Part shown: piece after piece, positions 7,806 to 17,288 of the stretch
Layout: each line of letters opens with the position of its first letter
Position numbering within the stretch: the stretch's first letter is position 1
Assembly: GCA_023645945.1 (NCBI GenBank)
Contig: JALAIB010000074.1
Coordinates: 1 to 35,370, forward strand
DNA: 35,370 nucleotides
Direction of reading: 5' to 3'
Source: Diploschistes diacapsis
Lineage: Eukaryota
Made by a program: the position numbers and the translations under genes
The notes under the pieces: generated by a model
Database searches by the model: none
What the model was told of the DNA's origin: nothing
Seen by the model: only the letters and a program-made list of their open reading frames with translations

Positions 7806-10312
7806 ATGTCCACACAGGGTCTAACTGCCCCAGGCAGTGCGCAATACAACTCGCCGGAGATGACGGTCGGCGATGGAACTTGGGACTCACAACATAACAC
7901 TTTCCTGCTGCCAAACTTACAGGGCCTGAATCTTGCAATGACACAGTACAATGGCATGGGCAACCGGTTCGCACAGATGCCCGGATATACCAACCTCATC
8001 AAGGCGCACGGCATACTGGCTGCGATAGTTTTCCTCTTCATAGTACCTTTTGCGATCATGTTCAATCGGTTCTACGGCCGCAATCCCTGGACGGCGATAC
8101 GAATACATATTTGGTGCCAGATCATGACGATGTTTCTAACAACAGTTCTGTTGATATTGGGTTTCATGGCGGTTGGGCCGGAAAGGAGTTTAACGAATCC
8201 GCATCATGCTGTTGGAGTTGCGATTTACACCCTTATTTGGTGGCAATTCATTGTTGGGTGGTGGGTGCATAGGAGAGAAAAGAGGCGGAGGTTACCTTAT
8301 CCGACTGTGACGGCTGTGGTAGGTGTTTCTCCGCCATGTCAACACAAGCGCGCTAATACGTCTAGATACATAAGTGGAGCGGACGGGCGACGGCACTTTT
8401 GGGATTGGCGCAAGTACCCATGGGGCTTGCATTGTTCGGATCTCCAGAATATCTTTTTATACTTTATGCGCTTGTCGTGTTCGCCATCGTGGTAGTCTAC
8501 TTCATCTATTCCTACATGCAAGAGCGCAATCATGGCCGAGAGATGGACGACCACATCAGCGAGCACAGCTACCATTACGAAGACGGCCACGAAAAGCGAA
8601 CGCACCGCTTCAGCAATTTGGCAAAGGGCGCAGCGGCTGGAGTGGGAATCAGTGCATTAGCAAATCGACTGCGGCACCGACGTGAAGTAGCTTCCAGCAG
8701 ACACTCTGGATCCGACTCGGTTTCTGTAGAAGAGGATAAGTACTCGCAATACGGACAGAGACCAACAGAAGGCCTTGGAAGGAGAAACATTCTCGGGCTC
8801 GGCGCCTTGGCAGCTGTATCATACTGGTTTGGGAAGGTATTTGCCCGACGAAAGAACCGAAGAGATGCAGAGGACATGTCTTCGGGATACTCTGAGACTA
8901 GCGAGGATTCCACGGAAAGAATAGAAAGGGTAGAGGAGGGTCGGCCTTCCACAGCGGGACCGCCAGCGGTGGTGGCATCTCCGGGACCTTCGCCAAGGCC
9001 AAACCAGCCGTTGAACCCCACTGCGAGCCACGTCAGTCACGCCAGCCATCGCAGAACGGCCAGCGAGATGTCGGAGGAGAGCTACGTAAGTGGGAGTCCG
9101 AGCAAGGAGAGACGTGGGCATGGGGTTAGGAATGCAATTGCTGGCCTGGGCACTTTTGCGTTTGCGAGGAGCTACCTCAAGAGGAGGCAGGAGAAGAAGG
9201 AGCAGAAGCGCATTGACGAGCTAAGAGAACAGGACAGGGATGACGAGAGGATACAGAGAGCGAGTAGCAGGAAATATACCGGCGATGGGTACCTGCATCG
9301 ACCAGGGCGATTGGGATCGGTCACAAGTACAAACCTAACGGCGGATCCAGGGGGCCCAGAGGCAGCAGGAGCCCTAGGCGATGGAATTGCCGCTACTGCA
9401 GCCCACAACCGTGAGGTGGCTGCCGCAAACTCGCGCCTCGCGGTACAAAACACGAACGTCGCAGATCCCTTTGTCAGTGACCCCCTCCCTCCCCCACCCC
9501 CACCACACAGCGTTCACGGGTCCTCCGGCTCGGAAGTCTACGCATCCTCCGGCGGCCACGATCATCGCCGCCACCACAACCTCGCCGAAGTCGCGGCCGT
9601 GGGAGCCGGCGCATCGGCCGTCGGTCTCGCAGCCGGCGAAGCCCTCGCGCAACGGCGCCAGCGCTCCGAGAGCCGCCGGCGAAGCAACGGCGCCGACAGC
9701 ATGGGCTCGCAGCCGGTCAGCGTCAAGCTAAACATGCACAGCGACGGGCGACACGTCACGCTGCGGCGGCTGACGGAGGAGGAAGCGGCGGCGGAGCGGG
9801 CACGGCAGGCGCGGAACAGGAACAGACAGCGCAGGAGGGCGGGGAGCGCGAGCAGCCTGGGTAGTCCGGATGGTGGTGGCGATAGGTGGCGCAGGACGGA
9901 GGCGCAAAAGAGGAGGGAGCAACAGCAATTAAACCAGCAACAGCAGCAACAACAACAGGTACAACAACAGGTACAACAACAGCGGCCACAGCCGCAGCCA
10001 CAGCCGCAACAACAACTCTACGCACCCCCCGCAATACCGAGCGCTCCTCAGCGTCTCCAGCCTCAGCCGCACTATCCAAACAACAACGCGTCCTCGGTGA
10101 CTTTCTCGCCGCCACCGCCGCCTCCAATGCCGGGCTCGGATCCTAGATTGGCGAAACCGGGGCCCAGCAGCGTCGGCAGCCCCGGGACCTATGACGGGAA
10201 CCTGACGGAGACGAGCACGAACTACGAGAACAATCGGCGGCGGAGGAGGGCGGAGCGGGCGGCGGCGGCGAGGGAGAAGCAGGCCAGGGTTGCGAGGGGG
10301 GACTTTAGTTGA
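7806..10312 (+). CDS. Cytochrome b561/ferric-reductase-like transmembrane protein with long low-complexity C-terminal tail, 819 aa; exons 7806-8318, 8366-10312
   Basis: A phase-0 intron 8319-8365 (GTAGGT..GCTAAT..TAG) joins two ORFs. Four His residues at TM helix starts (AHGILA, IHIWCQ, PHHAVG, IHKWSGR) fit the b561 di-heme pattern. Confidence 0.8.
9920..10015 (+). repeat. CAA/CAG poly-Gln and Gln-Pro coding repeat
   Basis: Encodes QQQLNQQQQQQQQVQQQVQQQRPQPQPQPQQQ within the b561-like gene. Confidence 0.85.
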
Positions 10313-11933: not shown

Positions 11934-14878
11934 CTAACCCGCAGCGGGATTGTTCTTGCTCCTATGCCCTGTCGGCGGAACGTGCGGCACATGCGGGCTT
12001 CCGCTGCCGCTGCTCCTCCCGTCGCTTCCCTCGCGTACCATGCCGACGGCGGTCTTGCGCTTGTGCTGAGCCGGGATTGGGTCCTCGTCGTCCTCCTCGT
12101 AGCTTTCGACGTGCAGGCTGTTTCCGCTGAGGGCACTCTGCGAACGGCGGCTGCGGCCGGACATGTTGCGTGCTATGCCGTTCGTTCCCGCGCTGCCGAA
12201 GCCGCTGGCGGGAAGAACGGAATGAGACTCGGGCGTGTGGAAGGCTGCGAAACGGCTGTACCCGGTGGTGCCGTGGCAGTTGGACGCGCTCGGGTTCGTG
12301 CCTGGCAAATCACCTTCGGGAGTAATGGGCCGGCTGCCGTACTGCTGTTGAGATTGCTGTGCCTGCCGGGCCCTTTCGTTCTGCTGCTCTTGATGCAATA
12401 TGGCCATGCGCTGCGAGTTGATGGCCTGGAAGCGGATCGTAGCTTCTTGAAAGGCACGCTGGAGCGCATTGATCTGCTCCTGGTAGTGGCCTTCGATGTG
12501 CTCTCGCTGCACGCTTCTGAGGGACGGATCCAATTGGGTGCGGCGATGGTCCGGACCTGCCGTCGAGCTGAGCCTCTTGTACTGGTCAAGGAGCTTGTTC
12601 GTCCGAGCCTGCAGTCTTTCCTTCTTCTGCTTTGCAGTAATGGACTCGGCTTGCAGAGAAGTGTGATTTCGGCGGTTATCTTCTTTGGTTCGTTGAAGAT
12701 CCTCTTGGACCCTGGACTGCTCGTTGCGCGTCCGTTCCCAGCTTGACTTCTGGTCTTGCCATTCCGCTCGAGCGTCGTCCGGCACTTCTGTGAACGACTC
12801 CAATTCCTCCGTCAGCGCGGCGTGCGTGTCCTCTGCTTGACGAATGTTCTGGCTCAGTTGCAGCTGGCGGGACGTCAAGCCCTTGTCGCTGTTGGCAAGC
12901 CGAGCGAGTTTTTCTGTGAGAACGTCGAGCTCTTTTTTCAAGGCCATTACATTGGCTCTGCTGTCCTTGCGCATGCGCCGTTGTTGCGATTGGGTATCGT
13001 TCACGCTGGACTCGAAGGCGGCAATCGAAGTCTTGAGGGTCGCTACTGGAGAAGCCGGTGATGAGGGGCGCATGGTTGGGGGAACTATAGGATTCGATGG
13101 CGAAGCTGCCCGACGTTAGAGAGCGACAACTCAAAGCAGAGGCCAAGCTTACCTTGCTCGGGCGCTTGCGGAGATGGCGTGACAACGACTTCGGAATGAA
13201 GCTCGACGCCATCTCCGCATCGCGAGAAAGAAACGCGGTAGGTGCTGGCGGGCGACAGCCCGTAGACCTCGCCAACCCACTGCCGCATGGGTTGTGGTTC
13301 TTCATGGACCGAAGCTTCTTGGATCTTGACCGACGCCCAGTTGGCGCCGTTGATCCGTATATAGAAAGACTTGGTGCGGTCAATTCCGGCTTCGTCCTCA
13401 AGCTCTTCCTCCCTTCGCCCCTCGTCGCCGCTGGCATCGTGGCAGGGCATGGGCCCTGTTTCGAAGTAGAACCTGTCCTGACGTATCGCCGTAATCCAAA
13501 TCCGATTCACCTCCCCAGCAAAGGGAGCACTCCCCAAATCCTCAACCCCCTCCGCCTTAGACCCTCGTGCATCCCGGGTGGCTTGTGATTGTTCGTATTC
13601 ACGTATGATGGTAGCTTTGGTGGACGCAAACGCAGCCCAAAGCGGCTGCTGGCTCCGTACATAGGTCGCTTGCTTCCTCCTTCTTTTCCCGCTGGATATT
13701 TTATCTCTAACGTCTCGTAAATTCTGCAACGAACTTTTGGATTTCAAGATCGAAGGCGAACTGGGTGGATTGTGCGAGCTCTCCGAAGCCTCGCCTGCTC
13801 CCTGCACGTTCCCAACCGCTTCCGGGTCCATGGTTCTGGAATGCGAAGAGAAAATAGACGTGCCTCTGGAGCTATGCAGGGACCTGCGAACCATCCTCGT
13901 AAGGCCCTGGAAGAGAATATGAATCGCGACCCATATCTTGATGGTGTCCAACCATGTCCTGTTCGCACCCAGCACGTACGAAGGCCGCGGCGGCAAGTCA
14001 TCGAAAGAGTCAACCATAGGAAGCCATTTCGCCAGCCATGTCTTGTGCAGCCACCGTAAGGTAGTCTTGCGGTATCTCCCCAGGTGCGTGACGAGCACCA
14101 CCATGACCATGACGAGTATATTGTCCGAAGCACCGGCCCTGTAGTCATACCCGCCCCCCAAAGTCGTTGCTACGGTAGCTTGTGCGCAATCGAGCAGCAT
14201 GCCCTGCAGCTGCGGAAAGGGTATCAGGTACCATAGGCTGATCGCCAGGAAGTCGATGAGAACGAGGACGATGAAGGAGGGTGTGGCGGGCGAAAAGGAC
14301 GAGGTGATGTCGGTCAGGCTGGGCAGAGTGGTGAAGGAGCCCGACGGGGGGACGAAAGTCAGCATAGCGAACATGGCGTTGGTGAGGTTCAGAAAGGTCG
14401 GCGGAAGGGATAGCAGGAAGATGAGAATAGCGAGAGTGTCGCCGATAGGACAGGATCTCAGAATGGTCAACGCCAGGGACAGAGCTCCGCCTTCGGACGC
14501 GGACGCCTGCTTGGCGGAGCTGACGTCTATCCTACGATGGTGGTGCTCCCCCATTTTGACGCCGTCTGCCGAGTCGGTCCCTTCCACCTCATCCGAGACG
14601 GCCACCGTCAGATCTTTGCCCGCAGCCTGTTCGGAGACGCTTAGTGTTGACACCTTCGTGGCTGAAGCGTGGGCATTACTCGCTGTGTCGTTGGAAACGG
14701 TCAGATTTCGAGGTGCGATGGCGGGCACGGACGGGGCGTTGTCCTGGGACCGTCCATCGACGGAGCCGTTGATGTGGCCGTTTGACTTCTGCTTGGTAAC
14801 TTTCTTGTATGGGGCGACTACACCATTTTCATGCTTTGTATCACGTTGATTGGCAGGCTTTTTGGAATTGCGGCCCAT
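11934..14878 (-). CDS. acrB: Ubiquitination network signaling protein AcrB homolog, 965 aa; exons 14878-13153, 13105-11934
   Basis: The N-terminus HENG...KKVTKQKSNGH matches my recollection of Aspergillus AcrB. It has TM segments (DTLAILIFLLSLPP) and a C-terminal coiled coil. A 47-nt intron (GTAAGC..CTAAC..CAG) joins the two ORFs in frame (2898 nt). Confidence 0.85.
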
Positions 14879-15259: not shown

Positions 15260-15304
15260 AGTAGTAGTAGTAGTAAGTAGTAGTAGTAGTAGTAGTAATA
15301 GTAG
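15260..15304. repeat. Imperfect (AGT)n microsatellite upstream of acrB
   Basis: Run of AGT units with two interruptions, read directly from the sequence. Confidence 0.9.
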
Positions 15305-15778: not shown

Positions 15779-16041
15779 TAGCCCCCCCCCCCCCTTTTCT
15801 AATTATTCTTGGCTGCCCGTCGTTGGGTTGCATCGTATCTACGCATCTACGGAAGACAAAACTTAAAATCGATGTTCAGATGATGCTTGCTTCATAATGC
15901 TCATTACTGGTTACATGTATCTCGGAAGAGAACCTGTAAGTGATGACCTCTCAAGAATCTAGGCTTATACTACGGAGCAGCCCTATCCAAACTGGGGAAT
16001 ATTCTCTAGTATGTCTATGAGGATCTGCTAGACTCACTTTG

Positions 16042-17288
16042 CTATTGTTGGCCCACGTCTTCCGGCTGACCGCTCGACACAGAGCAGCTTTCGAGTCTTT
16101 CAATGCTGGCCTCTACATCGTGTCTCCTTGTTATCCAATATTCTCGGCTCTCCCCTTCTTTCGCTGCCGCTTTCCGGAGCACATCTTCTATCCACGGGGC
16201 CATGGCGACTTTCTTCGCAAGCCTATAGTCATACAATACAACGTCCTCCAGTATGCGGGCCGCCGGTCTTTGGTGGGTATGGGAAATCACGGAGCAGCGG
16301 AACTGGGCGCTGGTGACAGGCGCCGAAGGTGGCAGAGGAGCCAGAGAGTGGTGGAGTGAAACGCGATCAGGATATTTCAAGGGCTGAAGAGGTGTCAAAG
16401 GCTGTTAGCATGCATCAAGGTCATCGCAGTCGGGCGATCAGGCGGTGAACCGTTGGAAACTCTAGCAGCAGCAAGTGAGGGCGGACGACTTACAAAGAGG
16501 AAATCAACCATCGCGCTCTTGAGAATCAAGCCTTCGCCCTTGGGACCAAGCAGTTCGCCCCATTCTTTCCGCCTCTCTGGAGGAACATCGGATGCTAGAC
16601 GTCTGAAATACCATATCCGAGATGTCTCGGCATAGCGTAGATATTGAACATTATTTACGTGACCTGCGGGCGCGGGGACGAACCTGTCAGCGGGTCTCGA
16701 AATGGCGTTGAAGGCCTCCCGACAGGCACATACCCTGTGTCAAGTAAGCTTGAAACGTCATACTCTGGGCTTGAGTCGAAGAGCCTTCGAAGCCAAGGTG
16801 CAGATGAAAGTAGAATTAGCCGAGTGCCATACCATGCTGTCCTATCTCCTGCATCAGCGACAGTGTCCAGCTGCTGATGATAGAGGAAAGCCTACCATGC
16901 TGCCCCAAAGGACCTTCTCTTCCCAAGCCTCACCGGCTCGCTCCGCGCCAATGCAAAAACCTTCGGGGCCAGCGACCAGACCTTGCCATTCCTCGGCCAG
17001 TATACGTGCTATTCGCCCGGCTTCGCCAATCTGCGCTCCACTCAGGCCGAACATAATGCATTGCCCCAATCGTGCTTTCTGCTGAGAGAGCCATTTTGGA
17101 TTGCGGGCTGGAGGCGACGGGGAGGAATCGCTCTGGTGTCGAGAGGGGCTAGTGGTATAAGTAGCGACCAGAGTTTCGAGCGTGGACGAGCGTGCGGTAG
17201 GCTGCAATCGCCGAGGGAGCGGGCTTGGATAAGACCCGGCCAAGCGAAGAGCGTTGGATGAGAAGGGCAAGGTGGTTGCCGCGCGCAT
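16042..17288 (-). CDS. Hotdog-fold (4HBT-like) acyl-CoA thioesterase, probably mitochondrial, 304 aa; exons 17288-16896, 16841-16833, 16734, 16663-16494, 16383-16042
   Basis: The spliced product reads WGSM-DSM-G-HVNNVQYLRYAETSR, the DxxGHVNN motif, followed by GLILKS...DFLFPLKYPDRV. All four introns are GT-AG and the total is 915 nt. The N-terminus is Arg/Ser/Thr-rich and acid-poor. Confidence 0.85.

Follow-up and report, generated by a model that had tools for sequence, protein, structure and literature searches.

A probable one-nucleotide exon in the DxxGHVNN motif of a fungal 4HBT_2-like thioesterase gene

In Fusarium, the CYP621A P450 genes contain a one-nucleotide exon within the pentamer AGGGT, whose single G, flanked by canonical splice sites, belongs to the Gly codon of a conserved motif and whose splicing is confirmed by reads from the SRA (Nelson and Syed 2026, PMC12940212). 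The Arabidopsis gene APC11 has a constitutive exon of one nucleotide (nt) between two spliceosomal introns, which annotation had missed and which was proved with GFP fusions (Guo and Liu 2015, PMC4674806), and the long-read annotation of Coprinopsis cinerea includes 13 one-nt exons in 13 genes, with long-read support, and reports that leaving out micro-exons breaks gene models (PMC12230235). A related kind of complex intervening sequence is the stwintron, in which one intron lies within another and breaks up its donor, branch site or acceptor, the outer intron becoming functional only once the inner one has been excised, and an alternatively spliced [D1,2]/[A2,3] stwintron has been proposed as the intermediate of a 1-nt intron shift (Fekete, Flipphi et al. 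2017, PMC5587772). Here we describe a gene in a 35,370-nt stretch of DNA from Diploschistes diacapsis (contig JALAIB010000074.1; the whole stretch is referred to as the window), which is read on the minus strand and codes for a putative thioesterase. Very probably, the G at position 16734 of the window is a genuine one-nucleotide exon of this nuclear fungal gene.

Junction phase and enumeration of intron chains

On the minus strand, the outer junctions of the interval in question, ATG/GTATGG (16832) and CGCAG/GTCAC (16664; the slash marks the splice site), are out of phase by exactly one base, and the frame cannot be restored by any one canonical intron. When 16833 is joined straight to 16663 the product reads DSMVT followed by a stop codon. 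A scripted sequence check showed that the interval between the two junctions holds ACACAG-G-GTATGT, in which the single G is position 16734. When this G is kept, the product reads DSMGHVNN and the frame is open over 304 codons, giving a predicted hotdog-fold (4HBT_2) protein of 304 amino acids (aa) that reads VLWGSMDSMGHVNN. The original prediction had proposed this G as an exon between two introns, and every letter and coordinate that it gave is present in the sequence.

In the proposed layout the motif WGSM-DSM-G-HVNN would be interrupted by three U2-type GT-AG introns, all of them short (54, 98 and 70 nt), with 10 coding bases dispersed across the 232 nt that contain them. The first nine of these bases would form a micro-exon, exon 2 (GACAGCATG, 16833-16841), which encodes D-S-M and includes the Asp of the motif. 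Intron 2 (16735-16832, 98 nt) runs from GTATGG to ACACAG and has two candidate branch sites, GCTTAC at 16749-16744, with its branch A 10 nt from the 3' end, or CTTGAC at 16744-16739. Exon 3 is the single G (16734), the first base of the Gly codon GGT in GHVNN. Intron 3 (16664-16733, 70 nt) runs from GTATGT to CCGCAG with a branch site GCTGAC at 16691-16686, the branch A of which is 23 nt from the 3' end, and exon 4 (16494-16663) opens with GTCACGTAAATAAT (GT CAC GTA AAT AAT) and encodes HVNNVQYLRY...FLF. The G would double as position +1 after the intron-2 acceptor and position -1 before the intron-3 donor, and removal of both introns, in either order, would yield GACAGCATG-G-GTCAC (D-S-M-G-H) with the mature junction ...GACAGCATG-G-GTCACGTA....

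Each of the two inner introns has its own donor, branch site and acceptor, and removal of one leaves the signals of the other intact. Fungal introns of such size are recognized across the intron, and introns 2 and 3 would for this reason each be definable alone. They are probably removed one after the other, since the intron-2 acceptor and the intron-3 donor are one base apart; no order of removal is fixed by the sequence. Skipping of the G leads to a stop codon three codons on, and retention of either intron also leads to early stops. The suggestion that such skipping might serve as an on/off switch through a frameshift and nonsense-mediated decay was not supported, as nothing indicates skipping, regulated or otherwise.

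An uninterrupted relative provided the reference for an exhaustive test of this layout. P0003 is a 387-aa uninterrupted open reading frame (ORF) on a 1628-nt contig, which reads VLWGEMDSMGHVNN and ...HRVLWGEMDSMGHVNNVNYMRY. The gene with the one-base exon is collinear with P0003, zero gaps being needed: residues 94-97 of P0003 are DSMG, of which 94-96 match the 9-nt exon and G97 matches the lone G together with the GT at the start of exon 4. Every GT/GC-AG chain of one to three introns between 16958 and 16604 was enumerated and scored against P0003, which amounted to 181,094 chains, 25,739 of them open into exon 4. With regard to the use of a different pair of splice sites, the chain with the one-base exon at G 16734 ranked first among all of these, with a score of 163. 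The best chain without any 1-nt exon scored 151 and requires a GC donor and a two-residue insert, and chains of at most two canonical introns scored 145 at best, with an 8-residue insert. The open-frame alternatives without a 1-nt exon were rejected, as all of them require GC donors and/or add 2-8 residues to the motif.

The second-ranked chain (157 versus 163) keeps another single base as an exon, namely the A at 16764 in CCCAG-A-GTATGA, which lies within intron 2 on the minus strand (16758-16769). Retention of this A would give DSMSHVNN, and Ser is found at this position in some relatives, e.g. P0086, which reads DSMSHVNN. However, the GT donor of the A exon is changed to GC by a substitution at 16762 in X3, one of the independent assemblies described below, the site has no counterpart in the related loci L004, L007 and L008, and no YTNAY branch motif occurs just upstream of it. 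Furthermore, the members of the window clade with an uninterrupted motif (P0003, P0008 and P0116) all have Gly. Consequently, we consider it highly improbable that the retained base is the A at 16764.

Related loci and independent assemblies

When metagenome contigs were scanned with an alignment of the exon-4 relatives, 9 loci were identified. L005, which does not differ from L004 in the region, was counted together with it, and L009, a weak 21-residue match, was left out. The seven remaining loci and the window were subjected to the same chain enumeration, scored against a 14-residue motif. The one-base-exon form (WGxM, intron, 9-nt exon, intron, G, intron, NN CAY) was found in L004 (=L005), L007, L008 and the window, and in L004, L007 and L008 this architecture was the best canonical chain. 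The position of intron 1 is common to the window and the three loci, and the lengths of introns 1, 2 and 3 are 69, 49 and 87 nt in L004, 84, 60 and 56 nt in L007, and 79, 56 and 62 nt in L008. The 9-nt exon is GATTCTATG in L004/L005 and L008 and GACAGCATG in L007. In each locus the retained G lies between AG and GTA (L004:2414, L007:2445 and L008:2363), in the contexts GAAG-G-GTACGT, GCAG-G-GTAATT and TCAG-G-GTAATC, respectively, compared with ACAG-G-GTATGT in the window, and CTGAC, CTAAC or CTAAT is located 9-17 nt upstream of every intron-2 and intron-3 acceptor in these three loci. In L008 the exon after the G starts with CA, giving the codon GCA (Ala), and what stays constant is therefore the intervening G rather than the encoded residue. 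The introns are not alignable between loci, their identity being 24-44% in global alignment. The internal AG-G-GT expected in orthologous loci is thus present in the three related loci that are out of phase, and the proposal of two GT-AG introns around a retained G at 16734, the first base of a Gly codon, is backed by these loci, by the ranking of the chains and by the uninterrupted relative.

The other four loci are in phase. L001, L002, L003 and L006 each have one phase-0 intron of 94, 105, 87 and 72 nt, respectively, with the arrangement DS(F/M)/GT...AG/GGN CAY, and this intron replaces intron 2, the G and intron 3 of the window (L001:22-140, L002:640-770, L003:1158-1270 and L006:263-360). 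The intron of L006 is a plain phase-0 intron that ends in GAAG/GGT. The in-phase acceptor is one base upstream of the window acceptor, which constitutes a one-base difference in intron position within the family, and deletion of intron 3 from the one-base-exon form produces exactly the phase-0 single-intron form of L001-L003 and L006.

To gauge chance occurrence, 5000 dinucleotide-preserving shuffles were made per interval, and AGGGT and AGGGTA were counted where both sub-introns were at least 40 nt. A bare AG-N-GT is not beyond chance: there are two in the window interval, and 1003 of the 5000 shuffles contain one. AGGGT arose in 268 of the 5000 shuffles for the window, 49 for L004, 74 for L007 and 101 for L008, and AGGGTA in 43, 8, 4 and 28, respectively. 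AGGGTA is present in all four out-of-phase loci, the window included, and AGGGT was found in none of the four in-phase loci (L001, L002, L003 and L006). In view of the shuffle frequencies for the window interval, the weight of the case rests on the relatives.

A mature messenger RNA (mRNA) identical to that of the one-base-exon form would also result from one non-canonical intron of 168 nt (e.g. ATGG/TA...AG/GT or ATG/GT...CA/GGT), removed in one step, in which case the internal AG-G-GT would play no part; since ATG is likewise followed by a G, the product would be the same. Such an intron requires TA-AG or GT-CA ends, and it leaves unexplained both the AGGGTA and preceding branch motif in 4/4 out-of-phase loci that are otherwise unalignable, and the length of the interval, which is 117-169 nt in the one-base-exon loci versus 72-105 nt for the single introns of the in-phase loci. 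We regard removal in this manner as quite unlikely.

Additional evidence for a wider distribution of the layout came from protein-level matches. An exhaustive HMMER search with exon 4 identified 166 proteins at E values up to 0.001, and the counts from this search were drawn from the best 150 of these 166. Many of the matches listed are short ORFs that run through the last intron into GHVNN, and 37 read-through fragments among them have at least 18 residues upstream. A signature compatible with AG-G-GTA (R-V, x-G-Y or [QKE]-G-x) was found 13-35 residues upstream in 17 of these 37 fragments, compared with a shuffle mean of 4.8 and with 0 of 2000 shuffles that reach 17, and the signature expected for ATG-G-GTA was found in 0/37. 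This suggests that the one-base-exon layout is widespread, and that it includes the closest relatives P0001, P0002 and P0005.

Among the sequencing runs listed for the stretch there was no RNA run, and three DNA runs contain all or part of it: X1, which is identical to the window and possibly its origin, and X2 and X3, which derive from other studies; a lichen-metagenome run matches the window DNA fully. X2 and X3 are ~97-98% identical to the window and both cover 16633-16848 (X2 covers 16300-16881), at a depth of 79 for X2 and about 3, which is thin, for X3. Over 16633-16848 they show 4-5 substitutions and a 2-nt deletion, all intronic, and the substitutions within the two inner introns, X2 and X3 combined, are at 16679, 16714, 16725, 16762, 16778 and 16821. 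Those in intron 2 (16762, 16778 and 16821) leave the intron ends unaffected. In intron 3, the 2-nt deletion at 16670 and the substitutions at 16679 and 16725 occur in both X2 and X3, and that at 16714 in X2 alone. As the deletion is not a multiple of three, the intron-3 stretch tolerates a frame-breaking indel. Within intron 1, a 2-nt insertion is present in one of two contig variants of X2 (depth 72.9 of 152.2). Both indels are consequently intronic, and all three changes of X2 and X3 in exons 4 and 5 are synonymous.

No change is listed for X2 or X3 at 16732-16736, at 16832/16833 or at 16663/16664. This bears on the possibility that a base is missing at one of the outer junctions, where both assemblies show the same letters as the window, and as the junction bases are unchanged in two independent assemblies, an assembly error is unlikely. 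In support of a G lost there through an assembly or sequencing error are the run of G at the donor (ATGG) and the full match of the window by a metagenome assembly. Conversely, X2 (depth 79) and X3 (about 3, thin) have the same junction letters while differing from the window elsewhere, and three distant loci show the same phase mismatch, making such an error extremely improbable.

A further explanation is that a frameshift has turned the gene into a pseudogene in this lineage, the internal AGGGT being coincidental. Consistent with this, the comparison of the window with X2 showed no significant excess of conservation in exons over introns (5/469 versus 8/332 positions changed, Fisher p = 0.16), and a search with exon 1 found no relatives in a large database. 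Set against these observations are the 304-aa open frame with its motif intact, the synonymous nature of 3/3 changes in exons 4 and 5 together with the intronic location of both indels, and the fact that L004, L007 and L008, which are full-length tblastn matches, would need the same "frameshift". A pseudogene is in our view very unlikely.

Protein family, gene structure and public gene models

The gene product is predicted to be a hotdog-fold thioesterase-like protein of ~304 aa belonging to Pfam 4HBT_2. When the exons were scanned separately, exon 4 matched PF13279 (4HBT_2) with 23.9 bits (E 6.2e-5, profile positions 11-56) and exon 5, collinear with it, with 16.5 bits (E 0.012, profile positions 58-120); alone, each is below the gathering score of 25.5 bits. 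On this profile, the scores of six full-length relatives range from 66.9 to 89.4 bits. The D-x-x-G-H-V-N-N motif with its Asp, which is the usual catalytic residue of the hotdog fold, appears solely when the 9-nt and 1-nt exons are included. By sequence the nearest solved structure is the thioesterase PDB 5byu, which carries IAWGDMDALGHVNNARY, with the same motif WGDMDALGHVNN. The gene resembles 4HBT_2 thioesterases of the 5byu type in the WG(D/E)MDxxGHVNN motif and in the collinearity of the domain, and the fungal proteins differ from the 4HBT_2 model in an N-terminal extension (RNxxWLSxxKxRLGxCIxFG...) that is outside the Pfam coverage.

The Gly encoded through the one-base exon had been described as catalytic. 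Among the matches listed, 15 proteins of at least 230 aa have an uninterrupted motif, and the residue in question is Gly in 13 of these, Ser in one (P0086) and Ala in one (P0098); shorter relatives among the matches listed have Asn or Gln there. The residue is therefore conserved (13/15) and not invariant, and the one-base exon of L008 encodes Ala; the description of the Gly as catalytic is too strong and was not supported.

The remaining parts of the gene, all on the minus strand, were delimited as follows. Exon 1 (16896-17288) has a putative start codon ATG at 17288 and comprises 131 codons that end in GGCAGCATG (...KVLWGSM). It aligns by BLASTP with residues 20-93 of P0003 (E 4e-18), the alignment stopping exactly at VLWGEM, and in a search among longer proteins 0/1191 candidates scored, even though the pairwise alignment to P0003 works. 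Intron 1 (16842-16895, 54 nt) runs from GTAGGC to GATAG with a branch-like GCTGAT at 16858-16853. Exon 4 is 84, 77 and 64% identical to P0001, P0002 and P0003, respectively. It is followed by intron 4 (16384-16493, 110 nt), which runs from GTAAGT to CTTCAG with a branch site GCTAAC at 16409-16404; P0001 and P0002 continue from ...FLF/FLL into V.., which fits a GT donor at the position where intron 4 starts. Exon 5 (16042-16383) is coding over 16383-16045, has its stop codon TAG at 16044-16042, and aligns with residues 154-268 of P0003 (BLASTP, E 1e-28). We observed that the last bases of exon 1 plus the donor that follows (GGCAGCATG/GTAGGC, 16896-16904) match the 9-nt exon plus its own donor (GACAGCATG/GTATGG, 16833-16841) at 13 of 15 positions, which may be due to chance or may be the trace of a local duplication.

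Plus-strand ORFs across the region (16702-17085, 16644-16877 and 16039-16359) had no match to a Pfam family, and an Rfam scan of the window returned nothing at the gathering score. Elsewhere in the window, an (AGT)n microsatellite of about 15 copies is located at 15260-15304, ~740 nt downstream of the stop codon of the thioesterase gene, and there were three outliers in composition: 1-1000 (GC content 0.355), 9001-10000 (AT skew +0.39, GC content 0.636, with a CAACAACAGCAA repeat at 9938-10016) and 12001-13000 (AT skew -0.36).

For the phylogenetic distribution of the layout, a quick maximum-likelihood tree of the part downstream of HVNN was constructed with 53 rows and with support from the Shimodaira-Hasegawa-like approximate likelihood ratio test (SH-aLRT); L005, L009, proteins with fewer than 120 residues past the motif and proteins of at least 450 aa were left out. 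L004 and L008 fall into one starred clade (98) with six Pezizales models and P0157, an ORF from a Logan assembly that reads GWGEMDSMGHVNN (containing DSMGHVNN). The window belongs to a starred clade of five (97), with P0003, P0008, P0010 and P0116, and L007 to a third (99). The one-base-exon form is accordingly spread over three well-separated clades, and the in-phase L001-L003 constitute a starred clade of their own (98), with L006 elsewhere.

A search with the L004 equivalent of exon 4 identified 13 proteins, ten of which are NCBI models from Pezizales and lichen-forming fungi (P0152-P0156, P0158, P0159, P0161, P0163 and P0164), namely from Tricharina praecox, Trichophaea hybrida, Sphaerosporella brunnea, Tuber magnatum, Rhizina undulata, Peziza echinospora, Letharia columbiana, Pleopsidium flavum, Candelaria pacifica and Psora crenata. 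WGxMDSMGHVNN was read correctly in 0/10 of these models, in which the motif is skipped, intron sequence is read through, or the start lies within the last intron. The expectation that gene predictors miss exons of this kind was thereby borne out at this junction. The mis-modelling appears to be caused by 9-nt and 1-nt exons that predictors cannot place, and the models lose or corrupt the stretch with the putative catalytic Asp of the Pezizomycotina 4HBT_2-like thioesterases. One of them, P0163 from Psora crenata (1955 aa), also resembles several fused genes.

Several points weigh against a one-nucleotide exon in the window or limit how far it can be generalized. The case is built on DNA, from which the splicing is inferred, and a single 168-nt non-canonical intron (ATGG/TA..AG/GT) would, as described above, yield the same mature mRNA. 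Intron 2 has a weak branch site (CTTAC or TTGAC, not CTRAY), is 98 nt long versus 49-60 nt in the relatives, and contains a second AG-N-GT. The exons were no more conserved than the introns at a significant level (p = 0.16). P0003 and P0157 were treated as transcript-like solely for their uninterrupted ORFs, and the fragment signatures come from amino acids, not DNA. Lastly, the genes of the three clades that show this layout might be paralogous to one another, and because of this its age is uncertain. Given the chain ranking and the related loci, we nonetheless think that the fungal spliceosome would use the G at 16734 as an exon.

Comparison with known systems

Taken together, the layout may be old. 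We tentatively propose a joint reading, which we hold to be plausible while falling somewhat short of probable, in which the layout is ancient and family-wide, is an intermediate of a one-base intron shift, and is a natural substrate for sequential intron removal. If this is true, the AG/G/GT exon and the 9-nt exon, found in three clades, predate the split of Pezizales from the lineage of the window. Loss of intron 3 would give the phase-0 form seen in L001-L003 and L006, and, were intron 2 lost instead, a phase-1 intron displaced by one base would remain. The layout could thereby represent the intermediate of a one-base intron shift and a second route to a single-nucleotide shift that is independent of stwintrons. 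As the two forms differ by exactly one component intron, such a shift is directly testable. With regard to splicing, the natural variants (four donors, four acceptors, and Gly or Ala) beside relatives with plain introns make up a comparative set that bears on how the spliceosome handles an acceptor and a donor that are one base apart.

A literature search on one-base exons or micro-exons together with thioesterase found none for a 4HBT_2-like family, although the supplements of the Coprinopsis and Fusarium reports could list related genes. At the ratchet points of long Drosophila and vertebrate introns, an acceptor abuts a donor, removal is stepwise and no nucleotide is retained. The thioesterase gene shares the juxtaposed acceptor and donor with these points, and probably the removal in steps, but one G is kept and is needed for the frame. 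It does not represent a recursive, zero-length exon: there is a G between AG and GT, and the frame depends on it.

Similarities to stwintrons are the presence of a complex intervening sequence in Pezizomycotina that takes two splicing reactions, the occurrence in relatives of introns that are one base apart (AG/GGN in L001-L003 and L006 versus AG/GT), and the conversion of one form to the other by the loss of one component intron (PMC5587772). A stwintron leaves no base between its two component introns (PMC5587772). In contrast, the two introns of the thioesterase gene are separate, each has its full set of signals before any splicing, and a single exonic base stays behind. The ordered splicing, akin to that of stwintrons, that was originally suggested for the gene was not supported: its introns are not nested, their signals are complete with one base between them, and no order is imposed.

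Among the described one-base exons, that of APC11 differs in that it belongs to a plant and to an unrelated gene, and was proved experimentally (PMC4674806), and those of Coprinopsis cinerea are from a basidiomycete (PMC12230235). CYP621A is similar in that out-of-phase flanks led to its exon, an intron-less relative confirmed it, and the orthologues share it (PMC12940212). In CYP621A the G stands in the middle of its codon (PMC12940212), whereas in the thioesterase gene it comes first, the splicing is deduced from DNA, a 9-nt micro-exon adjoins the G, and the protein family is a different one. Unlike that of CYP621A, the thioesterase layout is found in very divergent lineages, i.e. the Pezizales clade, the window clade and a third clade. 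One-base exons as such are already known, and the thioesterase case is an extension of known biology that is unusually widely conserved.

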